A stretch of 64,000 bases of DNA from Candidatus Latescibacterota bacterium (lineage in GTDB: Bacteria > Latescibacterota > UBA2968): contig OZ242311.1 in NCBI GenBank assembly GCA_965207885.1, positions 32,001-96,000 on the forward strand, written 5' to 3'. Shown piece by piece: positions 18,948 through 63,332 of this stretch. The translations under genes were made by a program, and so were the position numbers. Under the pieces are notes generated by a model that worked only from the letters and a program-made list of their open reading frames with translations, was not told where the DNA came from and did no database searches. Within the stretch, counting starts at the first letter, position 1; each line of letters starts with the position of its first letter.

Positions 18948-18949
18948 TG

Positions 18950-29980: not shown

Positions 29981-29983
29981 TTT

Positions 29984-40098: not shown

Positions 40099-40153
40099 AA
40101 AATTCGACTTTGAAACCCGAAAAGGGATCGAAAAGACCAGTACAGCATCTGCT

Positions 40154-40405
40154 ATGACCATACCTGCAATTCATCCGGGAGAACACCTCGCCGAAGAGTT
40201 GAGAGCACTCGACCTGAGCGCAACATCACTCGCACGACGGATTGAGGTACCCACCACCCGAATCACTGAAATCCTCAACGGACGACGTGCAATTAATGGC
40301 GATATGGCCCTGAGATTGGCTCATTTTTTTCATACCAGTGCAGAATTCTGGCTAAATTTGCAGAAACTCTATGAGTTGCGAATTGCTGAGGAGAAAGTCC
40401 GATGA
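40154..40405 (+). CDS. higA: HigA-family antitoxin, orphan
   Basis: IHPGEHL, HTH, ILNGRRAI..MALRL, FWLNLQ..YEL. Confidence 0.85.
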   Translation: MTIPAIHPGEHLAEELRALDLSATSLARRIEVPTTRITEILNGRRAINGDMALRLAHFFHTSAEFWLNLQKLYELRIAEEKVR

Positions 40406-40545
40406 TTACGTCGAGACACAGATTGCGAAAGCTGTTGCTGAAGTCAAGGGCAAATCATGAGACGCCTGTGCCATTTGTCGCCTATTACAAAGAATGCATG
40501 TGTAGCAACTTCTGCACTATCCACTAAAGCGAAGTAACTGCAACG

Positions 40546-41421: not shown

Positions 41422-41621
41422 ATTAAAGCGCGACTTGGCCTGGACCAGTTGCACCTCGTCCCCAATGCAGGTTCTTGCCGCTTATCCCCCGATGCCGTAA
41501 TTTGTTAAAAAGGCAGCAATTGCCTATAATACGGAAACTCGAGTTGATTGATAACGACGTGATTTGACTCGGTCCAAGATTGAGAATCCGATGATCGTAT
41601 TATTTATATAATAGTCCTATA

Positions 41622-43343: not shown

Positions 43344-45660
43344 GTTCACTGTTGACACCCACTTGTTCCGAGAACTCGGAGAACTACTGGTCGGACGCGA
43401 CTCCACCGCCTTGATCGAACTGATCAAGAACGCCTACGATGCCGATGCGACCGAGGTCACTGTATATGGTGAGCGACTCGACAATCCAGAAGAGGGACAT
43501 ATCCTGGTAACGGACAACGGCGTGGGCATGAATCCGGAAGAGTTCACGAAAGGTTTTCTGAGAGTTGCTTCGCGTCTGAAGGAGCTGGGCGAGCGGCGAT
43601 CCATCTTATTCCAACGCCGTTACACTGGTGCGAAGGGAATTGGTCGGCTTGCTGCTCATAAGCTTGCGCGAAAACTCGAAATTGATAGCGTACCGCAGCT
43701 CTCTGAATTGGATAGGACTCGAGAAGCTCTGAACGCCACAATAGATTGGGACAAAATAGAGCAGTACGAAACCCTGGATGAACTTGACTCTACCGACGCG
43801 ATTCTTCTGGACACCAAGACAATAAGCAAGAACACTCGTTCAGGAACAGCACTTCTCCTATCGCGGTTGCGACGAGCCTGGACCAAGACTGAGCGTGCGA
43901 GGTTTTTAGCTGAGGTTCAATCGTTTGATCCCCCTTCGTTTTTGTGTGAGCCGCTCCCGCGATCGGTTATCGAAGAGCCACTGCTGTTCGACACGCCAAT
44001 TGTACGAGACCAGGGTTCCGATGCCGAGACCTCTTCATTCCGGGTAAACCTTGAAGGAGACTTTGCCGCAGGTGAAGACTACTGGGCGCTTGTTGCGGCA
44101 ACGTTTAACTGGATACTGGAGATTCGGACAGATCCCAATAATGGACACATAGGCTTTGGAATTGCTCCTACAAAAAAGAAGCTGAGGGAAAATCCCGAGA
44201 TTGAGGCATTCTATCATACCATACCTCACCCTACTCCCGAGCGTGGACCCCATTTTGACGCACGTATTCTGGTGAGAGAGGGCCATCAAAAATTTACTCG
44301 AGACCAACGGACGTGGGCAACGAACACCAGTGGCGTTCGAGTTTATCTGGAAGGGTTTCGCGTCCTACCGTATGGAGAACCAACAGACGATTGGCTCTCC
44401 ATTGACGCGGATTATGCGAGACGCCCCCGGCAGCTCGAAATGCTCAAGGATATTGGATTCGGCACAGAAGCTTCTGACCGCAATATTGGACTTGTTCGTG
44501 CGCCGAGCAACAATTACTTCGGCGCAGTTTTTCTTACCCAAAATCGCTGTCCTGAAATGCGACTTCTGGTGAATCGAGAAGGGTTTGTCCCAGAGGCGAG
44601 TTTCGAAACCCTGGAGCGGTTAGTCCGGATGGGAATAGACTTCCTGACTCGCGAGCGTGCAGCGGAGTCCTACGAGCGGCGTCAACAACGAAGGGAGGAT
44701 CGGCGTAAGGGTTCTACAAAGGAAGATACCCCGCAGAGTTCCACCGATATAAGTCATGTAACCAACGACAATATTGAAGTCCCTGAGTTTTTGGAGCGAA
44801 TTCAGGAAGCAACTCATTTAATGAAAAAAGCTGGTGAACATCTTACCGGCGATGACAAAGACGCGACTAATGCAGCTATGCAGAAGTTGGATGAGGTGAA
44901 AATACTCGCTGAAGATTTTGAAGATTTGATTTCAGAACACATGCTCTTATATGTCCTCGCTTCTGTGGGAACTCAGATGGCCGCGTTCGTACATGAGATC
45001 AACGTCTTACTCGCAGCATCACAAACCATTGAGCAGGTGCTTGAAGAGGTGCTTGCTGAGGGTGGTCTATCGCTTGATGAAAGGCGCAGGTTCAGGCGTA
45101 CCTTGAACCGCGCGACAGAGCTCAAACACAGTCTGGAACGTCAAGCCTCTTACTTGATGGACGTCGTGAGTGTTGATGCGCGCCGCCGCCGGTCTCGCCA
45201 GCGTTTATGTGAACGTTTCGATGCCGCAGTTCGTCTCGTACAGCATCAAGCAGAACGCCGAAGTATCAAAATTGACAATCATATTCCACCCGAATTGAGG
45301 TCTCCTCCCCCGATGTTTCCCGCTGAGATTACAGCGATATTCGCCAATCTCCTGACAAATGCGGTTAAAGCCGCTGGAGAGGATGGACATATCCTTGCTT
45401 CAGCATCCAGTGGAAATGATCAGGTTCGGATTCGCATCCAGAACACCGGCACTGCCGTCCAACTCAATGACGCCGAGCGCTGGTTCAAACCCTTCCAATC
45501 AACAACATCTGAAGTAAACCCCGTGTTGGGCCAGGGGATGGGGCTGGGACTGACTATTACACGGAACCTGTTGGATAACTATGGAGCAGTTGTGAAATTC
45601 ATCCAGCCGGATAGCGCATTTGCAACTGCAGTCGAAATAGCCTTGCCAAGTAGGAGTTAG
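43336..45660 (+). CDS. MORC/MutL-like GHKL ATPase fused to a histidine kinase
   Basis: N-terminal ELIKNAYDA, DNGVGM, GAKGIGR; C-terminal FVHEIN H-box, NLLTNAVKA, GMGLGL. Confidence 0.85.
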   Translation: MAKFTVDTHLFRELGELLVGRDSTALIELIKNAYDADATEVTVYGERLDNPEEGHILVTDNGVGMNPEEFTKGFLRVASRLKELGERRSILFQRRYTGAKGIGRLAAHKLARKLEIDSVPQLSELDRTREALNATIDWDKIEQYETLDELDSTDAILLDTKTISKNTRSGTALLLSRLRRAWTKTERARFLAEVQSFDPPSFLCEPLPRSVIEEPLLFDTPIVRDQGSDAETSSFRVNLEGDFAAGEDYWALVAATFNWILEIRTDPNNGHIGFGIAPTKKKLRENPEIEAFYHTIPHPTPERGPHFDARILVREGHQKFTRDQRTWATNTSGVRVYLEGFRVLPYGEPTDDWLSIDADYARRPRQLEMLKDIGFGTEASDRNIGLVRAPSNNYFGAVFLTQNRCPEMRLLVNREGFVPEASFETLERLVRMGIDFLTRERAAESYERRQQRREDRRKGSTKEDTPQSSTDISHVTNDNIEVPEFLERIQEATHLMKKAGEHLTGDDKDATNAAMQKLDEVKILAEDFEDLISEHMLLYVLASVGTQMAAFVHEINVLLAASQTIEQVLEEVLAEGGLSLDERRRFRRTLNRATELKHSLERQASYLMDVVSVDARRRRSRQRLCERFDAAVRLVQHQAERRSIKIDNHIPPELRSPPPMFPAEITAIFANLLTNAVKAAGEDGHILASASSGNDQVRIRIQNTGTAVQLNDAERWFKPFQSTTSEVNPVLGQGMGLGLTITRNLLDNYGAVVKFIQPDSAFATAVEIALPSRS

Positions 45661-45662
45661 CC

Positions 45663-46808
45663 TTGAGTATGAATAATATCAATAAGCCGTCCATTCTTAT
45701 CATTGACGATAACCCTGACCTCGTCAATATAGAGTTGGGAGACCGCGCAACGACTTATGTAATTCATCCTCAGGATGTAGAAAGATCGGACCTGAATAAT
45801 GCTGATCTGGTTCTGGTGGACTATGCGCTGGAATACTGGTCAGAACGGGATAATCTATCGATCATTTCACTCCAGCCAGCAACCGGAATGGCTCTTGCGG
45901 TTGTGCTACGGGAGCAAGTAGATCAAAATGAAAAAGACAAATTAACAGCATTTGCGCTATATACAGCTCGTCTCAGAGATATTAAGGGGCGATTTGCCCC
46001 TGCGACTGCTCAACACGTTCTTGCGCGCCTGAACAATCTGGAATGGATATTCCCAAAGACGAATCCTGATAGCTACTCAAAGACGAATCCTGATAGCTAT
46101 AACCAGATACTCCTTCTTGCGGATGCTGTCCGGGAGCTTCCAGGCCAATGGTCGAAAGATTCGGATTCAAGGGTGCAACAACTTCTCGATATGGATAAGG
46201 ACAACGAATCGTTTGAGCGCTGCTGGCGTGATGTTAAAGATTGCCGGGTGCCAATTGAAGAATTGTCTGAGGGAGAACATAGCATCCTTTTTATTCGATG
46301 GTTGCTTCATCAAGTATTGCCGTATCCTTGCTTTCTGTGGGCGGAGCACTGGGTTGCAGCACGCCTTGGGATTTCTATTGATGCCCTGCGTGAGGTACTG
46401 GAGGGAGATAGCGATCTGGCGAAAGACTTGGAGTCCATGCGCTATTCGGGGATTCTCGCGGATTTTTTGGGAGATAGGTGGTGGCGTGGTGCTATCGAGG
46501 ACTACGCCTGGAATTTAGTAGAAGGACACACGGCTAATGTACAACATTTACGAGATGCCTTGGCCGAGCGTGCCGGAATGAAACTGAAGTCAATTGACGT
46601 CAACCCCGCTGTGGTTTGTGTGGATAAAAATTGGCAGCCCATCGACAAATTCCTATCGCCAATGGATACCATAACCCTGCATCCTGACCACTGGCCCGCG
46701 TTTGCCGACCCAGCCTGGATGGACATCGAGACTGTGCGAAATGAAGCGACTCTGTTGCCATTGGTGGATCCCCTTGACCAATACCTCATCGAGAATGATG
46801 AAGAATAG
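45663..46808 (+). CDS. Response-regulator receiver domain plus unknown C-terminal domain
   Basis: ILIIDD, LVLVDY, LYT, FPK receiver motifs. Confidence 0.75.
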   Translation: MSMNNINKPSILIIDDNPDLVNIELGDRATTYVIHPQDVERSDLNNADLVLVDYALEYWSERDNLSIISLQPATGMALAVVLREQVDQNEKDKLTAFALYTARLRDIKGRFAPATAQHVLARLNNLEWIFPKTNPDSYSKTNPDSYNQILLLADAVRELPGQWSKDSDSRVQQLLDMDKDNESFERCWRDVKDCRVPIEELSEGEHSILFIRWLLHQVLPYPCFLWAEHWVAARLGISIDALREVLEGDSDLAKDLESMRYSGILADFLGDRWWRGAIEDYAWNLVEGHTANVQHLRDALAERAGMKLKSIDVNPAVVCVDKNWQPIDKFLSPMDTITLHPDHWPAFADPAWMDIETVRNEATLLPLVDPLDQYLIENDEE

Positions 46809-46818
46809 GACGGCAAGA

Positions 46819-47547
46819 ATGGCTGGGTTTCGCTTTCATTTTTCTGAACTGATCCAAGAGGCCGAAGTGATGCAAACCTTGTCAAAGAGGTTCCTTGATC
46901 CGAATAGGATGTGGGTTTTCTACAGGTTCTTGAGCGCCCTCCGCAGTATTGATGGAAAACCTATAAAAAATGTTTATCCTCTGCAACTTCATTGCCTTCA
47001 CACAAGACCAAGCGATCAGTACGACAGGAAAGCAGGGAAAAAGATATATGCGGTTATTTCAGGAAAGTGGCAGTTGCGACCATTAGAGAAGCACGAGATA
47101 GAATTCTGCGGGATCGCTTCGACGAGGATTGAGTTGTACGCTTCGGATGCTCCTGAGACACGCTTAGCAATGTGGAGCCTGGAACTGGGTGCTGAAGACA
47201 GTCCTGGCTGTTATGTTCACGCTCATATTCTCGGGGACCCCGTCGATCCTCGATTCCCGAAATCAGTTTCTATTCCCAGATTGCCCAGCCTCTTCGTCAC
47301 TCCGATGAGTGCTGTAGAGTTCGTCCTCGGCGAACTCTTCCAAGATAGGTGGTCCAAGGTGACCGACAGCAATGCTAAAAAAGTGACTCGTTGGCGTGAT
47401 ACCCAAAAAAGGTGGCTTCAGAGTCTGTTTTCATGGTACAATGACCAAATGGAGAACGCGAGTTCCTCTCCGTGGATGGCATTAAAGAAGGCAAAGCCAC
47501 CAGAAGACGGCATGTTTCTCCAAAAATCCAGAAGACGGAGATCGTGA
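46819..47547 (+). CDS. Hypothetical protein with HxH motif, fourth gene of the module
   Basis: ATG at 46819, 10 nt after the receiver stop; GCYVHAHI motif. Confidence 0.65.
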   Translation: MAGFRFHFSELIQEAEVMQTLSKRFLDPNRMWVFYRFLSALRSIDGKPIKNVYPLQLHCLHTRPSDQYDRKAGKKIYAVISGKWQLRPLEKHEIEFCGIASTRIELYASDAPETRLAMWSLELGAEDSPGCYVHAHILGDPVDPRFPKSVSIPRLPSLFVTPMSAVEFVLGELFQDRWSKVTDSNAKKVTRWRDTQKRWLQSLFSWYNDQMENASSSPWMALKKAKPPEDGMFLQKSRRRRS

Positions 47548-47580
47548 AAATTTAGTTAGAGCCACATCGTGTCGTGCGCA

Positions 47581-47619
47581 GACCAATCAAAATCGCTGAC
47601 TGATTGGTCTTATTTTTTT
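47581..47619 (+). terminator. Intrinsic terminator
   Basis: GACCAATCA...TGATTGGTC followed by a T tract. Confidence 0.7.
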
Positions 47620-47735
47620 GTCTAATTGTCTTTATACTCAAAAACACCATTGCAAAGCCCTGTTTTCACGCTTAAATTGCAGATATTCGTACCATTATTA
47701 TTATGGCCACAACTCCTGCCACAAGGAGAACAAAC

Positions 47736-48965
47736 ATGAAAATCCGACCCGACCTCGTTCCAGAGACCGAGCGGAACAACCTCGAAGTCATCCAACTCAC
47801 GGATGAAACGGTCCCCTCATCACACATCTACATGGAAGCGCAGATCTTCACGCCCGACTCCCAGCGGCTAATCATTCACCGGTCTGCACATCCCCACGGC
47901 TCTGACCCGAAGGACCCCGAGCACCAATTCCTCATCTGCGACCTCGAAGACCATTGCAGCTTAACGCCCATCACCACCGAACTCGGAACCACCGGACCAT
48001 CCATCTCCCCCGATGGCGAATGGCTCTACTACTTCGTCAACGAAACAGAACCCGGAGGCGGACGCCTGACACTCAAACGCGTCAAAATGGACGGAACAGA
48101 ACGCGACACCATCTATGTCCTGGACCACGCCATACCCGACACCGACTTCAGATTGAGCCGACCATATCCCCTCTCGACAATCTCATCCGACGGCAAGCGC
48201 ATCGCCATCTCGGGATTCCTCGGCGACGGCAAAACCGCAGGCGCGCCCTGGGGCCTCCTCGTCTTCGACATTGAAAAGCCATCTGTACGCCTGATCTTTC
48301 ACGGACCATCCTGGTGCAATATCCACCCACAATACACGCGCCAAACAGGCCCTGTCGCCTCCCACGACATCATGATCCAGGAAAACCACGGCAACACCGC
48401 ATCGCCCGACGGCAGCGTAGAAACACTCGTCAGTGGACAGGGCGCAGACATCCACCTGATCCGTGACGACGGCACCGCACTGCGCGACTTCCCCTGGGGA
48501 CGGGACGGAAACGAATTCTGCCAGGGGCATCAATGCTGGCAGGGACAAAGCGACATCGCCATCACCAGCACGAGCACACGCGAACCCGCTGAAAGACAAC
48601 TCATCTCCGGACGCGCCGCGTCTCACATCGGCGACGAAGGCATCAACACCCCGGGCGGCTGGCGAAACGACCTGTCCCGATCCTTCGACACGCCCGACTT
48701 CTGCCACTTCGCAACAGACATCGACGGAACGCGGTTAATCACAGACGCAGGTCCAATAGACGCGGGCGGATCAGTCTGGCTATTCGACCTCCCCGAAGAA
48801 GAGGAAGGCGCCCTCGCAAACGCGCGGAAAGTCGCGGACCCCGGATCGTCCTGGCAAAAAAACACACACATCCACCCCTTCCTCTCCCCGGATGGACAGT
48901 CGGGCTTCTTCAACTCCGATGAAAGCGGCATACTACAGGCGTATATGGTACGCGGTTGGTCTTAA
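47736..48965 (+). CDS. Beta-propeller protein, oligogalacturonate-lyase-like
   Basis: HIYME..FTPD, SPDG repeats, HIHPFLSPDG..FNSD. Confidence 0.65.
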   Translation: MKIRPDLVPETERNNLEVIQLTDETVPSSHIYMEAQIFTPDSQRLIIHRSAHPHGSDPKDPEHQFLICDLEDHCSLTPITTELGTTGPSISPDGEWLYYFVNETEPGGGRLTLKRVKMDGTERDTIYVLDHAIPDTDFRLSRPYPLSTISSDGKRIAISGFLGDGKTAGAPWGLLVFDIEKPSVRLIFHGPSWCNIHPQYTRQTGPVASHDIMIQENHGNTASPDGSVETLVSGQGADIHLIRDDGTALRDFPWGRDGNEFCQGHQCWQGQSDIAITSTSTREPAERQLISGRAASHIGDEGINTPGGWRNDLSRSFDTPDFCHFATDIDGTRLITDAGPIDAGGSVWLFDLPEEEEGALANARKVADPGSSWQKNTHIHPFLSPDGQSGFFNSDESGILQAYMVRGWS

Positions 48966-48975
48966 GCAAAACTAA
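48920..48975 (+). repeat. Direct repeat A (3' end of the Ogl-like gene); second copy 54201-54256
   Basis: TGAAAG(C/T)GGCATACTACAGGCGTATATGGT(A/G)CGCGGTTGG...ACTAA. Confidence 0.9.
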
Positions 48976-48989
48976 AAGGAGATACCAAA

Positions 48990-50918
48990 TTGATTCCCCG
49001 ACAAGTGCTGTTTGGCAACCCAGAAAAATCCATGGCCCGAATCAGTCCCGACGGCGAGTATCTCAGCTACCTCGCGCCAGTAGAGGGCGTTTTGAACGTC
49101 TGGGTCACCGCAGTAGAAGATCCCGACTCAGCCAGACCGATCACCAAAGACGAAGAACGCGGCATCCGCCTCTACATCTGGACCTATGATGGGCAGCACA
49201 TCCTGTACTACCAGGATGCCAAAGGCGACGAAGACTGGCATGTGTACGCGACGAATATCACCACAGGCGAGACCCGAGACCTGACGCCCTTTGAAAAAGT
49301 CAACGCGCAGATTCTCTCAGTCAATGAAAAGACGCCCAACGAAATCCTGATCGGCATCAACAACCGCAATCCGCAGCTACACGACGTCTATCGAATCGCG
49401 CTTTCCACCGGCGAGCGGACCCTGATCGAAGAGAATCCGGGCTTTGTCTCTTACCTGTTCGACAACGACGACCGCACGCGTTTTGCCATGACATTTTCGC
49501 CGACCGGAGGACAGGAGATCCTCCAAAGGGATGAGAGCAACCAGTGGCAACCCTTCATAGAGGTTCCCAACACCGACGCCCTGACGACCTATCTGACCGG
49601 CTTCGACAAATCAAACCAGATCCTCTATATGATCGACAGCCGCAAGCGAAACACGGCCGCCTTATTCACCCTCGACCTGGCGTCCAGGAAACAAGAACTG
49701 GTAGCCGAGAACGACCGCGCGGATGTGGGTGGGATATTGGTTCATCCAACAGAGAAACACGTACAAGCCGTATCGTTCATTTACGACCGCAACCGCTGGC
49801 ATGTGCTGGACCCGGCGATTCAAGAGGACATGGATTACTTGCACTCGGTGGAAGACGGCGAATTGTCCATCACCAGCCGCACGCTCGACGACCGCTTGTG
49901 GACAGCGGCCTACGTCCTGGACAACGGGCCGGTCAAATACTACCTGTACGATCGCACAAGGAAGCAGGCGAATTACCTGTTCAGCAACCGCACGGACCTG
50001 GACGAGTACCAACTGGCCAGGATGCATTCGCTGACCATCAAATCCCGGGACGGGTGGAACCTGGTCAGCTATCTGACGCTCCCCCCCGACAGCGCCCCCG
50101 ACGGCGACGCTCGGCCGAGCAATCCTGTACCGCTGGTTTTACTGGTTCACGGGGGTCCCTGGGGACGCGACATCTGGGGCTACAATTCGGAGCATCAATG
50201 GCTGTCGAACCGCGGTTACGCCGTGCTGAGCGTCAACTTCCGCGGCTCGACCGGCTTCGGCAAAGAGTTCACCAACGCTGGCAATGGCGAGTGGGCCGGC
50301 AAAATGCACGACGACCTGATTGACGCTGTCAACTGGGCAGTCCGTGAAAAGATCACGCAGCGCGACCAGGTGGCGATAATGGGCGGCAGCTACGGCGGAT
50401 ACGCGACCCTGGTCGGATTGACCTTCACGCCCGAGACATTCGTCTGCGGCGTCGATATTGTCGGCCCGAGCAACCTCGTCACGCTACTACAAAACGTACC
50501 GCCTTATTGGGTCCCGATCCTCCCAATGATGAAAGACCGCGTAGGTGACTGGACCACAGAAGAGGGCCAGCAATCCTTGCTCGCCAAATCGCCGCTTGCG
50601 CGCGTAGATCAGATCCAGCGCCCGCTGCTGATCGGCCAGGGTGCCAACGACCCGCGCGTCAAACAAGTCGAATCCGATCAAATCGTCGAGGCGATGAAAC
50701 AAAAAAACATTCCCGTGACCTACGTGCTTTATCCAGACGAAGGGCATGGATTCGCACGACCGGAAAACCGCTTGTCGTTTTACGCCGTCGCTGAGGCGTT
50801 CTTATCCGAGCACCTGGGCGGACAGTTTGAACCGGTCGGAAAGGACTTTCAAGGAGCGAAAATTCAGGTGCCAGAAGGAGCGGACCAGGTCCCCGGACTC
50901 CAGACGGCCCTGGCGTAA
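48990..50918 (+). CDS. S9 family (prolyl oligopeptidase-like) peptidase
   Basis: VHGGPW, GGSYGG, NDPRV, DEGHGF triad. Confidence 0.93.
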   Translation: MIPRQVLFGNPEKSMARISPDGEYLSYLAPVEGVLNVWVTAVEDPDSARPITKDEERGIRLYIWTYDGQHILYYQDAKGDEDWHVYATNITTGETRDLTPFEKVNAQILSVNEKTPNEILIGINNRNPQLHDVYRIALSTGERTLIEENPGFVSYLFDNDDRTRFAMTFSPTGGQEILQRDESNQWQPFIEVPNTDALTTYLTGFDKSNQILYMIDSRKRNTAALFTLDLASRKQELVAENDRADVGGILVHPTEKHVQAVSFIYDRNRWHVLDPAIQEDMDYLHSVEDGELSITSRTLDDRLWTAAYVLDNGPVKYYLYDRTRKQANYLFSNRTDLDEYQLARMHSLTIKSRDGWNLVSYLTLPPDSAPDGDARPSNPVPLVLLVHGGPWGRDIWGYNSEHQWLSNRGYAVLSVNFRGSTGFGKEFTNAGNGEWAGKMHDDLIDAVNWAVREKITQRDQVAIMGGSYGGYATLVGLTFTPETFVCGVDIVGPSNLVTLLQNVPPYWVPILPMMKDRVGDWTTEEGQQSLLAKSPLARVDQIQRPLLIGQGANDPRVKQVESDQIVEAMKQKNIPVTYVLYPDEGHGFARPENRLSFYAVAEAFLSEHLGGQFEPVGKDFQGAKIQVPEGADQVPGLQTALA

Positions 50919-50929
50919 ATGAGAACCAC

Positions 50930-51901
50930 ATGACAATCTCCCTCGACCCCATCCGCGACGATTTGATCGCCTGGGCGGAATCCCTCTACCTCCCGGACAC
51001 TGGAGCCTTCCGCAACGGCGACACACCCGCGCCCAGCCTTCCGAGCACCCTCTTCATCACCTATATTTTATACAGCATAAACGCGCTCGGCGCAGTCGCG
51101 CTTGACCGCGCAAAATGGATCGCCTGGATCCAATCGCAACAGAGCGAACAGGACGGATCCTTTGCCTTCCCGCCCTCAGACAATCCGCGCCGTGGGATCG
51201 CATTTTGGAACGCAGTTCGCGCACTCAATATGCTGGGTGCTCAGGTCCTGAAATTCCCCGACGACCAGCGCAGCGCAACAACCATCACCGGACTCCGCCA
51301 ATGGTTCAAAACGTGGAAAGCATCCGGCGACACCCATCACGAAGTCCTCGCGCGCGTACCCATGCTCGTCAGCCATCCAGACCCCGCCTGGATCAACGCT
51401 TTCTTCGACGAACTCGCCGCACAACAGCACCCCGCGCTGGGAACATGGCCCGCTGAAGGATCCACCAACATCAGCCGCACATTTGCCTACAGTCTGATCT
51501 ACACCGGAATGGACAAACTCCCGCCACAACCTGAGAAAATCGTAGATGCCATGCTAAATCTCCAGGAAGAGAATGGCTTCTGGCACGGACGCCCCAACTT
51601 TTCAACCATGGACGCGGTCTATCTCCTATCGCGACTGCCAAAAGCCATCGGGTGGCGCGAGACAGAAGCAAACGCCGCGCTACACCGCACAGCAGATGCA
51701 CTCATCCCCTATTACAAAGCGCACGCCGAACGCGACAAGCAGGACACCCATCAATTCGCGGCCACCGTACAAACACTCGCCCTGCTATACGAAGCCTTGC
51801 CCCGGCGATTCACAACATCGCACCCGTGGCGATTCGGATGGAGCAACAGGGCGTTCTGGCAATGCCGCGTAATCAAAGAGAAACTAACCGTCCATTATTA
51901 A
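50930..51901 (+). CDS. Hypothetical protein, possible prenyltransferase-like alpha/alpha barrel
   Basis: QQSEQDGSF and LQEENGFW QW-like repeats. Confidence 0.6.
   Translation: MTISLDPIRDDLIAWAESLYLPDTGAFRNGDTPAPSLPSTLFITYILYSINALGAVALDRAKWIAWIQSQQSEQDGSFAFPPSDNPRRGIAFWNAVRALNMLGAQVLKFPDDQRSATTITGLRQWFKTWKASGDTHHEVLARVPMLVSHPDPAWINAFFDELAAQQHPALGTWPAEGSTNISRTFAYSLIYTGMDKLPPQPEKIVDAMLNLQEENGFWHGRPNFSTMDAVYLLSRLPKAIGWRETEANAALHRTADALIPYYKAHAERDKQDTHQFAATVQTLALLYEALPRRFTTSHPWRFGWSNRAFWQCRVIKEKLTVHY
51758..51877 (+). repeat. Direct repeat B (3' part of the 50930 gene); second copy 54257-54376
   Basis: 120 bp, near-identical by eye. Confidence 0.95.
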
Positions 51902-52119
51902 CACACGAAAACGGGTCAAGTCCAAGATACGAACACTGGATGAGGCCCAGTTCCCAACGGCATTCGGCTTGGCGATGGAAGCAGAGGAATACACACAGGT
52001 AAGGGAGAAGCAGGTCAAAGAGGCACTATCGGACATGGAGCATCTGGGGCTGGACGATCGATCTACTGATGAACCTGATGACCCCAGCATGGACATTATA
52101 GATCAAGAACAGAACGCAG

Positions 52120-52176
52120 ACAGGACCTGGTCTGGGGATCGAACTCGACGAAAGCGGTCGTCAATAAACATCGTGC
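52120..52176 (+). pseudogene. Direct repeat C: 3'-end fragment of an enolase-family gene, continuing at 53459-53474; second copy 55489-55560
   Basis: ACAGGACCTGGTCTGGG..TCGAACTCGACGAA...CATCGTGC|ATAAGGTTGCGTAAAA versus CACCGCGCGTAAGGTTGCGTAAAA. Confidence 0.85.
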
Positions 52177-52217
52177 GTGACTACTCCCAACGCTAAAGCA
52201 GTTGGGCTTCTTGGCGG

Positions 52218-53342
52218 TCAATCCGCCTGACGTTGTAGCCCCAACGTCAATATGTTTATCGCAGCATTGTGGTCTCTGTCCGTCTTATAGCCACACGCCT
52301 TGCAATGATGCACACGCTCAGAAAGTGCTTTCTTCTCTCTATGTCCGCATGCAGAGCAATCTTGTGACGTATATTCAGGATCAACGGCCTTGAATCCAAT
52401 ACCAGCCTCTTCCGCTTTGTATTTGAGACAGTGCCGAAACAGGGACCATGCTACGTCTGCTATTGATTTAGCCAATCGTCTGTTCTTTTGCATCTCTTTC
52501 ACGTCCAATTTCTCTACGGCTATGAATCCGTGACGATTGACCATTTTTCTTGATTCTTGATGAGCAAAGTTATGTCGTTTATTACGGATACGCTCATGCA
52601 CTCTACCAATGACTTTACGACGCTTTTCTCTTACGGCGTCGGTCTTGGGTCTTTTTTTCACCGCGTCCCATTTGCGCTGTGTTTTGGCAAGAGATTTCTC
52701 TTCTTTCCTAAAGAATCTCTGATTCTCTATTTTCTGTCCGTCACTGGTCACAGCAAAGGAATTGAGACCCACGTCAATGCCAACAGCAGAGCCAGCGGTT
52801 GGTTTCTTCTCTTTTTCGCCAATATCGCAAGAGATAGACACAAACCACTTGCCTGTTGCTGTGCGTGTGATTGTGCAAGACTTAGGGATACCCTCAAGTG
52901 ACCTGTGCTGGACAATGCGAATGCAACCAATACTGCCCAATCGCAAGCCCTTGTCGTCCAATCGACATCCATTGGCAAACTGAGGATAGGTGATAGAATC
53001 ATAGCGATGCTCATTCTTGTATCTGGGAAAGCCAGCTTTCTCGCCTGTCTTTGACTTCCCTTTGAGACGCCGAAAGAAACCTTTGAATGCCAAATCTACT
53101 CTTGCTGACACTTGTTGCAACACCTGACTATACACTTGCTTGAAAGCGGCGTGTTGTTGTTTTAACACTGGTATTGTTTTGGTCTGGTCATATTCAGAGA
53201 GAGACTTATTCTCATTTTTCCATGCTTGTATTCTGGCACAGAGTAGTTGATTATAGAGAATACGACATTCGTCAATATGCGCCAGCAAGATTTGTTCTTG
53301 CTTTTTGGTCGGACGCAATCTGTATTTGAATGATTTAACCAT
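52218..53342 (-). CDS. tnpB: RNA-guided endonuclease TnpB
   Basis: HTH N-terminus, GIDVG, IAVEKL, CSACG..CKACG zinc finger, DRDHNAAINI. Confidence 0.95.
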   Translation of the reverse strand: MVKSFKYRLRPTKKQEQILLAHIDECRILYNQLLCARIQAWKNENKSLSEYDQTKTIPVLKQQHAAFKQVYSQVLQQVSARVDLAFKGFFRRLKGKSKTGEKAGFPRYKNEHRYDSITYPQFANGCRLDDKGLRLGSIGCIRIVQHRSLEGIPKSCTITRTATGKWFVSISCDIGEKEKKPTAGSAVGIDVGLNSFAVTSDGQKIENQRFFRKEEKSLAKTQRKWDAVKKRPKTDAVREKRRKVIGRVHERIRNKRHNFAHQESRKMVNRHGFIAVEKLDVKEMQKNRRLAKSIADVAWSLFRHCLKYKAEEAGIGFKAVDPEYTSQDCSACGHREKKALSERVHHCKACGYKTDRDHNAAINILTLGLQRQAD

Positions 53343-53348
53343 AATAAA

Positions 53349-53377
53349 AATATATACTTATATGCATTTTTTGTCAA
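53349..53377 (-). promoter_or_regulatory. Sigma70 promoter of tnpB, probably leaderless
   Basis: TTGACA-N17-TATATT ending 6 nt before the ATG. Confidence 0.6.
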
Positions 53378-53464
53378 GATTTTTATCGCTAAAGCAATAC
53401 CAAAATCACAAGCCCTCATATCCCAACGCTAAAGCTGTTGGGTTTTACGGGCTGTTTGATAAGG

Positions 53465-53493
53465 TTGCGTAAAATTGCAACATTTGCTATAAT
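53465..53493 (+). promoter_or_regulatory. Sigma70 promoter of the vapBC-like operon
   Basis: TTGCGT-N17-TATAAT. Confidence 0.6.
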
Positions 53494-53529
53494 TTATTGC
53501 TTCCATGACATCATTAAAGGATTTTAGCC

Positions 53530-53784
53530 ATGAATAAAATGATAAAAACAAAAGTAACAGCGCAAGGGGTTTTGATCCCTCGGCAGTTGTTAGAAGGAAT
53601 AGAGGAAGTAGAAATAAAAAAAGAAAATGATGTGATTACAATTATGCCGACGGGACAGATGAACGCCTGCGGTAGTAGTACACAGCTTGATCCCATTTGG
53701 AATCTGGGTGAAAATCCAGTCGAATGTGGTATTTCAGATGCTTCCGAACAGCATGACAAATATTTGTATGACACATCTTCATGA
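53530..53784 (+). CDS. AbrB/MazE-like antitoxin
   Basis: KVTAQGVLIPR swapped-hairpin pattern, DASEQHDKYLY; ATGA overlap with the PIN toxin. Confidence 0.75.
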   Translation: MNKMIKTKVTAQGVLIPRQLLEGIEEVEIKKENDVITIMPTGQMNACGSSTQLDPIWNLGENPVECGISDASEQHDKYLYDTSS

Positions 53785-54194
53785 ACACAAATATATTCTT
53801 TCTTGATACAGGTTATCTCATTGCCCTTGAAGCTTCTAACGACAAAAATCATACACGCGCAAAAAATCATTGGCGAACTTTTATTCGCACACGCCCGTCT
53901 TTAGTGACCACCTCCTTTGTTTTCGATGAGGTGGTCACTTTTTTTAATAGTCGAAATCGACACGAAAAGGCCGTTGAAGTTGGCTCGCACCTCTTGAATA
54001 GTCCTTCTGTTCAGCTAATCCAGGTGGATGACGCCCTTTTTCGCAAAGGTTGGGAATATTTCGAGCAACATTCAGATAAGCTCTACTCTTTGACAGATTG
54101 CATTTCATTTGTTGTTATGCAGCAACGGAAAATTCAGACTGCCCTAACTTTTGATAGGCATTTTACTCAAGCCAATTTTTTGACCATTCCCTAA
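53781..54194 (+). CDS. vapC: PIN-domain VapC toxin
   Basis: FLDTG, VFDE, SLTDCISF, TFDRHF. Confidence 0.9.
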   Translation: MNTNIFFLDTGYLIALEASNDKNHTRAKNHWRTFIRTRPSLVTTSFVFDEVVTFFNSRNRHEKAVEVGSHLLNSPSVQLIQVDDALFRKGWEYFEQHSDKLYSLTDCISFVVMQQRKIQTALTFDRHFTQANFLTIP

Positions 54195-54200
54195 ATCTCC

Positions 54201-54376
54201 TGAAAGTGGCATACTACAGGCGTATATGGTGCGCGGTTGGCTTTGAGTAGGACTAAGCGGCCACCGTACAAACACTCGCCCTGCTATACGAAGCCTTGCC
54301 CCGGCGATTCACAACATCGCACCCGTGGCGATTCGGATGGAGCAACAGGGCGTTCTGGCAATGCCGCGTGATCAAA
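54201..54376 (+). pseudogene. Abutting gene-end fragments A' (54201-54256) and B' (54257-54376)
   Basis: Copies of 48920-48975 and 51758-51877. Confidence 0.9.
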
Positions 54377-54423
54377 AAAGCATTGACCGCATTGCCACAC
54401 ACCAGCACAGGAGCACATCAACC

Positions 54424-55548
54424 ATGAAAATCACCGACGTGGAAACCATCGTAATCCAAAACATCCAGCCCTATCGCGGGGGGCAATACTGGCTCTTTGT
54501 CCAGCTCATCACCGACGAAGGCATCGTGGGATTGGGCGAGCGACCCTCGGGAAATGCCACCAATTTGGACGCCCAAATCAGCCTCATCAAAAACCTCTGT
54601 CAGCAATTCGCCATCGGCACAAGCCCCTTTGACATCGAAAGCCTGTGGCAGCGAATCTTTGCATCTCGGCACGACTATCGCCATCCCGGCCTCGACGCAA
54701 CACCCGCCTTGAGCGCCATTGAAATGGCGTGTTGGGACATTGTCGGCAAAGCATTGAACCAGCCCATCTATAACCTGCTCGGCGGCAGAGTCCACGACAA
54801 ACTCAGGGCTTATGCCTACATGCCCACCGACGGCATCTGGGAAAATCCAGAACGCGCGGGCGAAATTGCAACCCGCCTGGTCGCGGATGGAAACACCGCC
54901 TGCAAATTCGACCCCTTCCACCCGATCTTTCCCAACCCGCGCGACTTCCCACTCAAAACCATCCGCCACGTCGCCAAAATATTCAAAAGCATCCGGGACG
55001 CAGTAGGCGACGAATTGGAAATCGGCATCGGCACCCACGGACAATTTAGCACATCGGGCGCAATCCGCGTGGCAAAAGAACTGGAAGAATTCAGTCCCTT
55101 CTGGTTTGAAGAACCCGTCCCCCCGGAAAACATCGACGAAATGGCCCGCGTCGCCGCCCACACCAGCATCCCAATCGCCACGGGGGAACGACTCGTCACC
55201 AAATACGAATTTGCCGAACTCCTCAAAAAACAGGCCGCACAAATCCTCCAATTAGACGTAGGACAATGCGGCGGAATATTGGAATCCAAAAAAATTGCCA
55301 GCATGGCCGAAGCCCACTACGCCCTCATCGCACCCCACATGTATTGCGGTCCCATCGCCGCAGCAGCCGCGGTGCAACTCGACACATGCTCGCCGAACTT
55401 TCTGATCCAGGAATTCAACGCCAACGACCTCCACAGCGAAATATTCATAGAACCAATCCAATTTGAAAGCGGCTATATCACCCCGCCAACAGGACCTGGT
55501 CTGGGCGTCGAACTCGACGAATCAGTCGTTGCAAAACACCGCGCGTAA
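54424..55548 (+). CDS. Mandelate racemase/muconate lactonizing enzyme family
   Basis: TDEGIVGLGE, WDIVGK, KFD, GTHG, EEP, TGER. Confidence 0.9.
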   Translation: MKITDVETIVIQNIQPYRGGQYWLFVQLITDEGIVGLGERPSGNATNLDAQISLIKNLCQQFAIGTSPFDIESLWQRIFASRHDYRHPGLDATPALSAIEMACWDIVGKALNQPIYNLLGGRVHDKLRAYAYMPTDGIWENPERAGEIATRLVADGNTACKFDPFHPIFPNPRDFPLKTIRHVAKIFKSIRDAVGDELEIGIGTHGQFSTSGAIRVAKELEEFSPFWFEEPVPPENIDEMARVAAHTSIPIATGERLVTKYEFAELLKKQAAQILQLDVGQCGGILESKKIASMAEAHYALIAPHMYCGPIAAAAAVQLDTCSPNFLIQEFNANDLHSEIFIEPIQFESGYITPPTGPGLGVELDESVVAKHRA

Positions 55549-55562
55549 GGTTGCGTAAAAGC

Positions 55563-55597
55563 AAACGCCCCAGCATCGTTTATGCCGGGGCGTTTTT
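55563..55597. terminator. Intrinsic terminator
   Basis: AAACGCCCCAGCAT..ATGCCGGGGCGTTTTT. Confidence 0.75.
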
Positions 55598-55646
55598 GTG
55601 TCAGATAAACCAATTCCCAAAGGGTTTTTCTGTTTAGCGAACTCAT

Positions 55647-57443
55647 TCACCGAAACGCGATGCGATAAGTCAATGTATTTTCAGCATTGATGTACGCCGT
55701 CACGACCTGGCGATCACCGGATTTGAGATCGGTATCGGATAAAGTGAGTGCGTTTTCGGTTTCAATACAGAGCGAAACATCACCGCGCGTGAGAACCGCC
55801 CCGTTCTTTATTGTATCCATATCCCCTTTCAAAATCGGGAGAACCTCAGTAAATGCACCGGGATAGCTGACAGAAACAGTAATCGCATCGCTGGCAAAGA
55901 GAATCGTCTTACTGCCAGCTTCGCCGAGGGGATAGGTAATCTCGAGATCGCCATCGGGCAGATCGCGGATACCGGGTCGCGGTATGATCGGATCCCCATC
56001 AATCCGAAAAGCAGCAGCAATATCGGTCTTTTCACAGAGCGTATTATTAATAATCGTCCCCCAGGCAGCATAGTCTGTATCCGTTTGAGACTGCAGAACA
56101 GCACCAGCGCGAGGATGCCAGATCAACCCCAGCCCATACCGCTGTTGGGCACTCAGCACAGGCCCCGTATTAAAAGCAGCGTAATAAGTTGGACGACGGA
56201 CAAACGAAAAAACCACCGGATGGCGGCTGTCAACCCGCTGGTGTGTGAAACGGTCTCGTGCGATATAGGGCAACATCGCAGTGGCCGCTTTTTTTTGTTC
56301 TGAACTGGGATACCATGTAATGTGGTCCCGGTGCAAAAAAGCATAAGGCGTAAAAGCCCAAAATTCACCGACCTGGAGCGGCGCAACAGAGGGCCAATTG
56401 GCTTCAAGGCGGGCGCGCGCATCTGCAATATCCCGTGCATGTGCCTCAGCCGTACGCCCATAAGCGCGGGGCAACTCGAGTACTTCACCGAGCGCAGTCG
56501 TGTCGATATCCCCAGAATTAGACCTCTCGGCACCGCCGAGATTGGCGCGATACTCAGTGAGAAAAGCTCTCTGCTGGCGGGTTTCAATACCGCGGTTGAG
56601 CGCGTAACCCGTACCATCGGGTTCGCGCACGGCATTGTAGGAAAACCAATCGTACCAGCGCTGTTCTTTCTCCAGAAAAACAGATGCCCGATCCGTGCCG
56701 CGAGCATAGTGATAGGCAACGTGGATATCGCTGTGGTGAGTACCGAGAAAATAGCCCCAATCGGGACCGCTACGCTCGTAAAAATAACCTGCTGGACTCT
56801 GAAATTCCGTCAGACTATCTTCAAGACGCTGATCGAGCAAACGCTCGAGTTCTGCATCGGGAAAGAGATCCAGATACGCCAGCGCACCACCCCAGGCATT
56901 GGCATACTGATTGGTAAAATTGCGACCCTGGGTTTGCAATTCATCAATCGTAAAAGTGGCGTAGAGTGCTTTGCGGTCGGCGGCTATGACGCGCTCGTGC
57001 AGGGCTGAATCAATGTCCGGACCGCTGTCGAGCAGGTGGAGGGTTTGCCCCATAAACTTTGTGGCAAAAGCAGTAGCGGCGAGATTCCACTTACCGGGAC
57101 CGTACTCGCTGAAACGCCCATCCCCGTTTTGAATGCCGCACCAGAAGTCGAGCGCAGCTTCGAGACGCTGGCGCAGGTCGGGCTGTGCGTAAAACACATT
57201 CCAGGGGCGGTCGGTGCAATAAAAGAAAGCCAGCGCCAGAATATTCTCCATAATACGCGCATTGTGCGGTTTATTATCCTTCGGATTCCGCCAGACCGAA
57301 ATATTGATAAAGCCGCGATCGGGGCCGTACATCTCAACAGCATTGGCAACCCGGTGAAAATGCGACAAATAATAGGGCAAATCGAGTTCGCCATCGGCAA
57401 AGTCGGCTGGTGAAAAATCAGCAACAGGCGCGGGATTAAGCAT
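55647..57443 (-). CDS. Hypothetical protein, possible alpha/alpha-barrel lyase-like
   Basis: 598-aa ORF with RBS AAGGAG; codon usage like neighbours. Confidence 0.65.
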   Translation of the reverse strand: MLNPAPVADFSPADFADGELDLPYYLSHFHRVANAVEMYGPDRGFINISVWRNPKDNKPHNARIMENILALAFFYCTDRPWNVFYAQPDLRQRLEAALDFWCGIQNGDGRFSEYGPGKWNLAATAFATKFMGQTLHLLDSGPDIDSALHERVIAADRKALYATFTIDELQTQGRNFTNQYANAWGGALAYLDLFPDAELERLLDQRLEDSLTEFQSPAGYFYERSGPDWGYFLGTHHSDIHVAYHYARGTDRASVFLEKEQRWYDWFSYNAVREPDGTGYALNRGIETRQQRAFLTEYRANLGGAERSNSGDIDTTALGEVLELPRAYGRTAEAHARDIADARARLEANWPSVAPLQVGEFWAFTPYAFLHRDHITWYPSSEQKKAATAMLPYIARDRFTHQRVDSRHPVVFSFVRRPTYYAAFNTGPVLSAQQRYGLGLIWHPRAGAVLQSQTDTDYAAWGTIINNTLCEKTDIAAAFRIDGDPIIPRPGIRDLPDGDLEITYPLGEAGSKTILFASDAITVSVSYPGAFTEVLPILKGDMDTIKNGAVLTRGDVSLCIETENALTLSDTDLKSGDRQVVTAYINAENTLTYRIAFR

Positions 57444-57496
57444 GAATCAACTCCTTTGTTTAACGATTCGTCGAAGAGAGCAAACCATTGAAAAAT

Positions 57497-57530
57497 AAAA
57501 AAGCGGTGATCCGAAGACCACCGCTTTTTT
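57497..57530. terminator. Bidirectional intrinsic terminator
   Basis: AAAAAAGCGGTG...CACCGCTTTTTT. Confidence 0.75.
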
Positions 57531-57547
57531 GCGTTTATCGCGAACAC

Positions 57548-58666
57548 TTATTTATCGCGATGTAAAATCTGTCGCAAACGCCCGACTTCGCGTTGCAGAT
57601 AATTGATATGTTGATAAACCGCTGCATCTTTGGGCTTCACCAGAGGCGCTGGACGCAAAGCGACCAGAGCAGCGCTATCCATCTGATCCAGCTCGACTTG
57701 TATCGCCACCACCTGTCCCTCGCGTCGAATACCTATCGTTGCGGTCTCGCCCGGCGTACTTTCCAGCACCATCCGCTTCAAATGCACTGGACCACCAATG
57801 GCGCGCCCACGATATGAAAGCACCACATCGCCCGGCTGAATCCCGCCCTCAGTTGCAGGACTATTCGGCTGCACATTGACCACCACCACCTCGTTGCCCC
57901 GTGGTGCAACCTCCACACCCAGTTTGCCATACGCCATTTGCCCATGTGCAACCAGCGCGCGCGCCACCCGCATCGCGCGATTGATCGGAATGACAAAAAC
58001 CGACGACGGCAGGGAGGTCCATCCAAATAGAGAACCATCGTCTTGAGTAACGGTGCGAATCGGGTCTTCATAGCGCCACACCATACCCCCAACCCGTCCA
58101 TTACCGCAAAACACGGGAGCCCCGCCATAACTGCTCTGCACGCGGGCCGACACCTGAAACAAATCCCTATCCCGATAGATTCCGTACACCATCCCAACAG
58201 AAGGCACCAGATTGCCAAAGTCATTGCCCAACAAAAGGGCGTAATGCCCAATTTTAATATACTGTGAATCTCCCACCACAACCGTGGGCAAATTCTCTGC
58301 CTCAACGCGAATAACAGCAATCCCCGAAATCGGATCTGCCCCCACGAGCGCCGCCCGCACCTGCACGCCAGAAGCCAGCGTCACCCGAATCTCATCGGCA
58401 TCTGCAATAGCGGCTTCAATCGTTAAAATATAACCCTGGGGATCAAAAATAAACCCCGTGCCGTGGGTAAACACCGAACCAAACGGCCCGCTATCTGCCC
58501 GCGCACGGGGAGGATAGAGCGTGTGAATCCGCACCACACTCTGCCGATTATCTTCCAAAATTGCAGCAATTTCCTCTTCAAGCGTGCACAACAGGCTGCG
58601 TTCTTCCGTCCATCCCCTGCCCACAAAGAGCAGGCACAACGCCATTGTGCAACACAAAGATCTCAT
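57548..58666 (-). CDS. HtrA/S1C trypsin-like protein with PDZ domain; catalytic residues appear lost
   Basis: GTGFIFD..GYILT, IPIN, PDZ motif GIQPGDVV; signal peptide. Confidence 0.8.
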   Translation of the reverse strand: MRSLCCTMALCLLFVGRGWTEERSLLCTLEEEIAAILEDNRQSVVRIHTLYPPRARADSGPFGSVFTHGTGFIFDPQGYILTIEAAIADADEIRVTLASGVQVRAALVGADPISGIAVIRVEAENLPTVVVGDSQYIKIGHYALLLGNDFGNLVPSVGMVYGIYRDRDLFQVSARVQSSYGGAPVFCGNGRVGGMVWRYEDPIRTVTQDDGSLFGWTSLPSSVFVIPINRAMRVARALVAHGQMAYGKLGVEVAPRGNEVVVVNVQPNSPATEGGIQPGDVVLSYRGRAIGGPVHLKRMVLESTPGETATIGIRREGQVVAIQVELDQMDSAALVALRPAPLVKPKDAAVYQHINYLQREVGRLRQILHRDK

Positions 58667-63179: not shown

Positions 63180-63332
63180 CGTATTTTGGACAAACGCAAC
63201 AATCAGAACTCAAGCAAATATCAGGCCAATTATCACAGAATTGAGCGATAAATTGCATATAAGCATCTCATTATGCTTTCAATATGCGGTATTGCGCTGT
63301 GGTTCACAACTTGAATTTGTGGATCGCCTGTT
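63180..63332 (-). promoter_or_regulatory. Conserved leader, copy 2, with sigma54-type promoter (63213-63228)
   Basis: Reverse-complement homologue of 9019-9189. Confidence 0.7.

Follow-up and report, generated by a model that had tools for sequence, protein, structure and literature searches.

We analyzed a stretch of 64,000 nt from contig OZ242311.1 of Candidatus Latescibacterota bacterium (positions 32,001 to 96,000, forward strand; hereafter, "the window"), in which a predicted toxin-antitoxin (TA) pair, vapBC, is accompanied by second copies of the 3′ ends of three genes. The pair lies between a gene that we call X (50930-51901) and an enolase-superfamily gene, Eno (54424-55548). Furthermore, Y denotes the small gene behind a short "orphan" next to X, tail 1 and tail 2 denote allelic ends of X, and X|Eno denotes the gap between X and Eno. 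For comparison, we used 20 loci reached via homologues of X and mapped their genes by tblastn; 17 of these loci are from Latescibacterota/Latescibacteria, and several are whole chromosomes. The locus holds the following features.

47703-48965, plus strand: PD40 beta-propeller gene (earlier "Ogl-like"), an open reading frame (ORF) with Pfam PD40, conserved in 12 of the 20 loci.
48920-48975, plus strand: repeat A, the final 46 nt of the PD40 gene and 10 nt downstream.
48990-50918, plus strand: S9 prolyl-oligopeptidase-family gene (Pfam Peptidase_S9), variable among relatives.
50930-51901, plus strand: gene X, prenyltransferase-like alpha/alpha toroid, from a weak Pfam match below the cutoff.
51878-51901, plus strand: X tail 1, EKLTVHY and a stop, then the spacer ACACAC up to 51909; shared with L013 and L001.
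51910-52101, plus strand: Y pseudogene (the "orphan"), with a leader, an ATG at 51940, a 177-nt internal deletion, and the stop TAG at 52099-52101.
52114-52176, plus strand: first piece of C, a 3′ stub that retains its own stop and stems from a diverged enolase-superfamily gene (repeat searches, alignment).
52177-53458, minus strand: insertion sequence (IS) of the IS200/IS605 type with TnpB only (TnpB at 52218-53342); right edge approximate (+/-2 nt).
53459-53529, plus strand: second piece of C (53459-53474) and the conserved leader of the enolase-downstream slot.
53530-53784, plus strand: putative antitoxin gene vapB, an ORF of 84 aa with a 4-nt overlap with vapC; role assigned from position.
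53781-54194, plus strand: vapC, predicted PIN-domain toxin (Pfam PIN, E 2e-14; PDB VapC20, E 9e-16).
54201-54256, plus strand: A′, the 3′ stub of a diverged PD40 (Ogl-like) allele, ending GWL and a stop (repeat searches, alignment).
54257-54427, plus strand: B′ (54257-54376) and tail 2, ending ...KKALTALPHTSTGAHQP and a stop that overlaps the next ATG.
54424-55548, plus strand: intact Eno, of the MR/MLE superfamily (Pfam MR_MLE_N and MR_MLE_C; NCBIfam galactonate-dehydratase-like, below the cutoff).
55484-55560, plus strand: C′, the repeat partner of C.
About 55565-55597, plus strand: stem-loop terminator of Eno, read by eye.

Two gene names given in a preliminary description of this DNA were revised. 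Pfam gives PD40 only for the gene at 47703-48965, then labeled Ogl-like, and "enolase" is right as to the superfamily, MR/MLE, yet means only a sugar-acid dehydratase-like protein of that superfamily. The S9 gene is missing from L012 and is reduced to 5′ and 3′ stubs in L005. The putative VapBC identity follows from the PIN domain of the toxin with acidic residues (D9, E50, D105, and D124, read by eye from the translation) and, for the antitoxin, from its position; vapB had no family or structure match in Pfam, NCBIfam, PADLOC, or PDB. The G+C content is 34-45% over 52300-54250, which spans vapBC, the leader, and the IS, versus 55-63% in the neighbouring genes. An Rfam search over 47000-58000 at E <= 0.1 returned no match.

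Self-BLASTN of the 64-kb window and a repeat search recovered the three interleaved direct repeats that had been described, all of them significant, and each consists of the last codons and the stop of one gene: the PD40 gene for A, X for B, and Eno for C. By self-BLASTN, pair B (51758-51877 / 54257-54376) is identical at 119 of 120 positions (E 5e-55), pair A (48920-48975 / 54201-54256) at 48 of 56 (E 5e-11), and pair C (52120-52178 / 55489-55546) at 81% over 59 columns (E 3e-7), with a core of 89% at 52115-52152 / 55484-55521. Six of the eight mismatches between A and A′ fall within the final 16 nt. The second piece of C, at 53459-53474, pairs with 55545-55560. Between B and B′ lie, in order, the 204-nt "orphan," C split by the IS, the leader, vapB and vapC, and A′. 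The reading frame of B′ continues, as had been noted, to ...CRVIKKALTALPHTSTGAHQP and a TGA that overlaps the ATG of Eno at 54424-54427; beyond their 120 nt, B and B′ are not unrelated, as alignment shows tails that are homologous but diverged. The locus had also been called integrase free, and a Pfam scan of window ORFs in sets of 12, 12, and 35 agreed: it found no tyrosine or serine recombinase domain and no integrase or excisionase domain, and the sole transposition-related gene among the ORFs tested encodes TnpB.

We also considered a motif shared by the junctions as a recombination site, comparing by eye the sequences after ...ACTAA, ...ACACAC, and ...GCGTAAAA, and rejected it; none is common to them, and the junctions sit at gene ends, where selection would place them anyway.

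The same arrangement, which we call the composite, occurs with every one of its junctions in L001, a single-chromosome record of 5.7 Mb from another species-level lineage than the window. A chimeric join of strain variants during assembly is a conceivable concern for a metagenome-type source with close strain relatives, and misassembly had been named beforehand as one of the findings that would refute the cassette. Because L001 carries the composite with the same junctions, misassembly is excluded as the source of the repeats, and ORFs that cross the X/Y and Y/C junctions are present in independent collections as well (P0033, P0186, P0188, and P0185), making an artifact extremely improbable.

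The composite is younger than its surroundings. Between the window and L001, we counted 5 differences in 301 columns over tail 1, Y, and C (4 of them forming one indel), 4 in 798 over the leader, vapBC, and A′, and 1 in 171 over B′ and tail 2, compared with 227 in 3839 in the left flank and 515 in 7428 in the right flank. Over 51561-54450 without the IS, the count is 24 in 1610 (98.5% identical) versus 744 in 11317 (93.4%) for the flanks (Fisher p = 1e-20), and the low-divergence tract spans ~51590 to 54437. The lower divergence indicates that the unit was exchanged between lineages after the flanks had diverged. Along each of the four core genes, the locus most similar to the window changes repeatedly, among many loci and at intervals of a few hundred bases. 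This pattern implies frequent homologous recombination, which offers an obvious route in X and Eno, and the exchange probably proceeded by homologous recombination in the flanks.

The relatives place the composite in a core-gene-flanked defence and toxin-antitoxin recombination hotspot of Latescibacterota chromosomes. X abuts Eno in 5 of the 20 loci (L002, L009, L010, L011, and L013), which is the empty allele that the preliminary description had predicted. The gap measures 1.9-4.5 kb in five loci, namely L001 with the composite, L003, L005, L006, and L007, and >9 kb of cargo follows X in five more (L004, L008, L012, L018, and L019). The X|Eno cargo is Zorya type II (ZorA2/B2/E2) in L003, an AAA_22 ATPase of 533-555 aa in L005, L006, and L007, and an HmaA-type SNF2 helicase in L004, L008, L012, L018, and L019; L004 also carries TIR-APAZ with a short pAgo, and L006 a HEC-01-like pair of AAA_21 and DUF4276 (HEC-01A/B), with an AAA_21 ATPase found in L008 and L018 too; HEC-01-like genes are likewise present in L008. 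By comparison, vapBC is present in 1 of the 20 loci only (L001).

Three adjacent slots are variable: X|Eno, Eno|dn1, and the region upstream of the PD40 gene. In the last of these, window positions 40092-47722, directly before the PD40 gene, are 7.6 kb of inserted DNA that L001, L003, L010, and L013 do not have; the insertion comprises a helix-turn-helix (HTH) gene, an Eco57I-like type II methyltransferase (41622-43340), an HATPase restriction-enzyme-like gene (43324-45657), and two ORFs without family. It is a second hotspot. A 237-nt stretch of the HTH gene (40153-40389) is 90% identical to L003:14718-14954, which belongs to the X|Eno cargo of L003, and cargo is thus shared between slots.

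Several repeats and gaps were noted within these islands. L006 holds a 264-nt copy (92%) on both sides of Eno (13164-13426 and 16633-16895), L008 has 79-nt direct repeats around its AAA_21 gene (19154-19232 and 20695-20773), and the cargo of L015 includes a 1.2-kb tandem duplication (98%) at 11294-13696. A 76-nt direct repeat in L002 (83%; 12891-12964 / 15078-15153), made of the HtrA terminator and the HtrA 3′ end, brackets a small ORF and a 598-aa gene that L009 and L011 are without; this is a further variable gene with a duplicated gene end at its flanks. In L007, S9 and X are present and the 10 kb of upstream DNA (upstream of 8047) has no match to the PD40 gene.

The variable segment starts within the last codons of X, and each type of cargo brings its own tail and stop. 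Alignment of X ends revealed tails of 7-20 residues that begin after ...CRVI(K/E) and fall into three types. Type 1, EKLTVH(Y/H) and a stop followed by ACACAC, is found in the window, in L001, and in the empty allele of L013 (EKLTVHH). Type 2, ...ALTALPH...GAHQP with a stop overlapping the Eno ATG, is found in the empty alleles of L002, L009, L010, and L011, in P0002, and in B′ of both the window and L001. Type 3 comprises other short tails with their own stops; all nine loci whose cargo is different have it. In L003 and L006, the cargo ends on the right at the same ACACAC that follows tail 1 in the window. Between tails 1 and 2, the alignment shows substitutions and a small indel. L013 could be a derivative of the composite, formed by deletion between the two copies of ACACAC, but its B differs from that of the window at 10 of 120 positions and thus shows no special kinship.

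These ends bear directly on the interpretation first proposed for the locus, in which vapBC would be an autonomous cassette without an integrase that moves from one gene 3′ end to the next, from Eno to the PD40 gene and then to X, each hop duplicating the target end, supplying a new stop, and carrying the old ends along as a dated trail. Three 3′ ends do flank or accompany vapBC, the ORFs tested hold no integrase domain, and every occupied allele has its own short X tail and stop. However, tails 1 and 2 are alignable and tail 1 already ends X in L013, which has no insert; the supposed new end of X is therefore an existing allele and not a product of insertion. Similarly, B′ had been taken for the original C terminus, and it is a genuine end that works in four of the five empty loci and in P0002, but either copy could be the resident one. 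Other occupied X|Eno alleles are without a duplicated X end within the sequence reached.

The DNA between the repeats also argues against such hops. With the IS removed, C together with 53475-53529 is 82-86% identical to the Eno 3′ end and ~65 nt downstream of it in L002, L006, L007, L009, and L011, where the leader after Eno precedes unrelated small modules of two genes (Gp49/HigB-like with HTH in L007, HTH in L009, DUF6932 in L011, and others in L002 and L006). C plus leader is the native left flank of the enolase-downstream cargo slot, and not, as had been supposed, the end of an earlier target; vapBC preceded by C thus has the appearance of cargo from that slot. Eno is followed directly by its terminator in the window, L001, L010, and L013. 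The leader contains an extended -10 box, TGCTATAAT, at 53485-53493, read by eye and not called by a consensus promoter scan; TGCTATAAT is also present in four of the five relatives and GGCTATAAT in L006. The scan called no promoter in B′.

The "orphan" had been described as a fragment; it is a decayed small gene and no captured end, as shown by protein and tblastn matches. A search with the frame-0 reading of 51888-52112 returned nine proteins at E <= 0.001, seven of them at E <= 1e-10, and the "orphan" matches the C-terminal half of P0185 (131 aa) and P0189 (114 aa); P0187 represents the same gene called as a longer ORF (148 aa), and its N-terminal extension matches the window leader of Y. 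The window copy has lost 59 codons after the leader and has 4 extra nt (52055-52058) relative to L001. In P0185, an intact Y reads into C-like sequence, and P0186 and P0188 have the same Y|C junction, from which it follows that this junction is widespread and older than the decay of Y. Y has no Pfam family at E <= 1, and tblastx and blastn-short searches with 51900-52125 against the 20 loci and the window matched only L001.

After the PD40 gene, where vapBC had been expected in relatives, none of the 12 loci holding that gene has vapBC or a duplicated A, and A, B, or C is repeated in L001 only among the 20 loci. In addition, we know of no mechanism that duplicates 56-170 nt of target without prior homology. 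We therefore consider serial hopping very improbable, and a new class of 3′-end-hopping cassette is not supported.

A′ itself resembles more than one allele. Over its first 40 nt, identity is 98% with the L006 allele and 95% with the PD40 gene of the window itself, and A′ ends within 1 nt of the point where L012, which has no S9 gene, passes from the PD40 gene into X. The ending GWL and stop is common to A′ and L012 only. These features give a weak hint that A′-B′ may derive from an S9-less allele.

The near identity of B and B′ had suggested that divergence records the order of events, with B the latest. Over these 120 nt, genomes typically differ at 5-18 sites, whereas the four copies in the window and L001 differ mutually at 1-5 sites and from any other locus at 5-12. 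The window pair shares a base that the L001 pair is without, and vice versa, and identity breaks off sharply at the start of the tails. This likeness fits gene conversion or a recent common source, and a latest event would not be needed; likewise, the mismatches in A and C cluster in the allele-specific extreme ends, so the proposed chronology does not hold. The same likeness counts against serial hopping, since conversion explains it better. In a separate case, P0030, a 189-aa X homologue from a 2-kb contig, residue ~133 (...GDTH) is joined to ...QFAATVQT by an internal deletion, and the 3′ part starts ~2 codons before the start of B.

Direct repeats of 120 nt, 97-99% identical and bracketing the cargo in both genomes, could also serve a recombination-dependent mini-circle: a RecA crossover between B and B′ would release [tail 1-Y-C-IS-vapBC-A′-B], vapBC would punish its loss, and the circle would reenter a naive genome by a single crossover in X, recreating the composite. 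Between the window and L001, divergence is indeed ~10-fold lower in the composite than in the flanks, and pop-out would yield the type 2 empty allele seen in four loci. Nevertheless, the low divergence also extends through tail 2 as far as 54437, with 0 differences in 51 nt, and over ~160 nt to the left of B, which linear DNA with two homology arms fits at least as well, and the origin of the junctions J2, J3, and J4 is left unexplained by a circle. We regard the mini-circle as unlikely.

That only 3′ ends were kept, three times over, had seemed odd. To evaluate this, we took a census of remnants in the island, using a BLASTN screen for partial core-gene matches and inspection by eye and counting the composite once; the sample is small and nonindependent. 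Remnants with the 3′ end only are A′, B′, and C of the composite, dn1 in L009 (82 nt), HtrA (72 nt) and vapB in L015, HtrA with its terminator in L002 (part of the 76-nt direct repeat), and, with uncertainty because it lies beside an IS at a contig start, S9 in L004 (406 nt). Both ends persist for S9 in L005 (52 + 61 nt), Eno in L014 (18 + 347 nt), and Y, and dn1 in L011 has the 5′ end only (~12-20 nt). Overall, 3′ material is present in 11 of 12 remnants and 5′ material in 4 of 12, never >52 nt, and the remnants of this region thus show the suspected 3′ bias. The bias is one of the observations in keeping with serial hopping. Yet where genes are codirectional, the edge of a duplication or the end of a deletion lies inside a gene, and the downstream gene stays intact, a 3′ stub would be forced, and three such stubs would be expected. 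A 5′ stub keeps its start signals and would express a truncated protein, which would favour 3′ stubs further.

We favour, with modest confidence, a history in which the repeats are stubs of a second, diverged block of the PD40 gene, X, and Eno, left by recombination in the hotspot. The ancestral order would have been X-Y-Eno-leader-vapBC, with Y between X and Eno and vapBC in the slot downstream of Eno. A fragment reaching from the PD40 gene to vapBC would then have been added to a chromosome already holding these genes. Homology would have guided the joining at one end; at the other, an illegitimate joint would have linked a point ~6 nt past vapC to a point 46 nt ahead of the PD40 stop, with possible microhomology of CTCC. 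Such joining, by homology-facilitated illegitimate recombination or unequal crossover, would produce a partial tandem duplication with vapBC in the middle. Deletions may subsequently have removed most of the first copy of Eno (junction at ~52114), the second copy of X with or without S9 (junction at 54256/54257), and the inside of Y, so that untranslated 3′ stubs alone remained. The IS would have entered stub C later, gene conversion may have kept B and B′ alike, and the finished composite would now be swapped between lineages by homologous recombination within the genes on either side. Deletions commonly erode genes in the island (Eno in L014, S9 in L005, dn1 in L009, HtrA and vapB in L015), and duplications occur in it (the 1.2-kb tandem of L015 and the 264-nt copy of L006); both support this history.

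The same two duplications, and the order and orientation of A′, B′, and C, which match the resident genes, are also compatible with a purely internal tandem duplication of the resident PD40 gene-X-Eno block that involved no foreign DNA and was followed by deletions and long neutral decay. Against this stand the two X tails, which are different allelic types and each a working end in other species. Furthermore, A′ is closer to L006 than to its own genome over its first 40 nt, with the differences in the allele-specific last 16 nt, and vapBC, the leader, and the IS have the low G+C content given above. A wholly internal origin is, in our view, quite doubtful.

Several points weigh against the history involving a second, diverged block. 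No intermediate was found: besides L001, 0 of the 20 loci has a full or partial tandem copy of X or Eno, and vapBC occupies the enolase-downstream slot in 0 of 20. The history calls for about five events, and only a few sites speak for gene conversion. On their left, all three deletions begin beside a gene boundary, which the model explains by selection only, and the A′|B′ junction can equally be read as 3′-end displacement, in which a second one-ended insertion with its homology in X would have made the illegitimate joint there. Moreover, the link between A′ and L012 is one dinucleotide and a shared breakpoint, and A′ differs equally from L012 and from L003.

The composite might act as an integrase-free homology-arm cassette, in which 3′ stubs of core genes are portable arms for host recombination. 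If so, a vapBC circle or fragment could enter X, the PD40 gene, or Eno of relatives without breaking the target, vapBC addiction would penalize pop-out, and the 3′-stub bias would reflect how TA and defence cargo generally moves in these bacteria. We consider this role decidedly unlikely.

The IS sits in C directly after the stop of the stub, and comparison with the copies in L005 and L004 puts its left edge at 52177, so the end of C given earlier, 52176, is exact. A 25-nt hairpin unit recurs near both ends (52185-52209 and 53421-53445; repeat search), TnpB has HTH, OrfB, and zinc-ribbon domains (Pfam, NCBIfam), and the flanks of the IS rejoin to C′ without a target duplication. The element is a TnpB-only member of the IS200/IS605 family that has no tnpA and is therefore nonautonomous. 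Of its 45 differences between the window and L001, most cluster at 52641-53196, and the ends and flanks are nearly identical; the interior divergence suggests exchange with other copies of the IS. Of its relatives, one copy follows Eno in L005 and another adjoins the truncated S9 gene of L004.

The closest relatives of VapC are P0064-P0068 (76-89%). A plasmid collection held no DNA match to 53459-54256, and its VapC relatives are distant (<=56%; Salinibacter, cyanobacteria, and haloarchaea). In L015, a distant relative in which the other core genes are not nearby, positions 18820-19038 carry a 3′ remnant of vapB (77% to window 53691-53750), then the HtrA terminator and a 72-nt HtrA 3′ stub. 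This remnant beside the HtrA terminator indicates that the vapBC family has a history in the island.

Elsewhere in the window, intergenic arrays of an 8-nt unit (CGAATAGA / CGAATCAA and the reverse complement), with up to 8.5 copies of a 16-nt double unit, occur at 252-391, 23816-23847, 26990-27051, 27114-27143, 29762-29897, and 29933-29993. They surround urease-accessory and ABC/branched-chain-type transporter genes and may be operator arrays. A 171-nt inverted copy (80%) joins 9019-9189 and 63180-63332, 54 kb apart; next to the former, a ~285-nt tandem repeat with a 33-nt subrepeat occupies 9200-9745. An McrBC pair lies at 9966-13107 among sugar-acid metabolism genes.

The locus is a well-resolved case, from an uncultivated phylum, of turnover of defence and TA cargo between core genes without an integrase. 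It illustrates how silent, short 3′ stubs left by recombination can be misread as the signature of a mobile element, and it carries a warning for annotation: duplicated gene ends around TA genes should be compared with relatives before a new class of element is proposed. If the 3′-stub bias is general, it would inform which scars of gene loss bacteria tolerate.

Integrase-borne islands and prophages use the 3′ end of a tRNA, tmRNA, or protein gene as their insertion site and bring a substitute for that end. Here, too, the insert is bracketed by direct repeats of a gene 3′ end, and the gene is left with an end that works; unlike them, the locus yielded no integrase domain in the ORFs tested, and each copy of its repeat is 120 nt of ordinary coding sequence that leads into one of two allelic tails. 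Integron cassette arrays and integrase-less attC clusters (CALIN) have a fixed leader or promoter and exchangeable small modules, many of them TA-like. The enolase-downstream slot is similar in having a leader ahead of exchangeable small modules but differs in that no integron integrase was found in the ORFs tested and the repeats are gene ends, not imperfect palindromes of the attC type; a repeat search of the window, made without an attC model, found no inverted repeat flanking vapBC.

Small chromosomal TA islets are proposed to integrate by recombination at flanking core genes and then to erode to remnants (PMC13617665). Here, too, a TA pair lies between core genes without mobile-element genes of its own, and the vapB remnant in L015 fits such decay, whereas duplicated flanking-gene ends, as seen here, are undescribed in the parts of that report considered. 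Strings of orphaned 3′ regions in Rhs, contact-dependent inhibition (CDI), and type VI secretion system (T6SS) loci have been ascribed to homology-facilitated illegitimate recombination (Kirchberger et al. 2017, PMC5361080). So far as the relevant parts of that study describe them, those loci resemble ours in several respects: an intact X has an alternative end and cargo, and B′ with tail 2 keeps the conserved 120 nt 2.5 kb downstream; both ends work elsewhere (tail 1 in L013 and L001, tail 2 in L002, L009-L011, and P0002); and the anchoring homology lies in the gene, the other joint being, as we propose, illegitimate, with no integrase found. They differ in that X is no polymorphic toxin, its tail has 7-20 residues, and its cargo is vapBC and not an immunity gene; stubs of two other genes are present here, and reductive deletion explains A′|B′ equally well. 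The locus works like 3′-end displacement but is no member of the polymorphic-toxin class. Jackson 2009 and de Vries and Wackernagel 2002 are cited in that study.

Core-gene-flanked integration and defence hotspots have been described (Oliveira et al. 2017, PMC5635113; Johnson et al. 2023, PMC10250203). As far as the relevant parts of these papers go, the features in common are the same flanking core genes, empty alleles, fast turnover of cargo that is mostly defence or TA, usually no integrase, and exchange that probably proceeds here by homologous recombination in the flanks. What sets this region apart from them is that three adjacent slots share cargo and that one allele, the composite, keeps stubs of the flanking genes inside its cargo.

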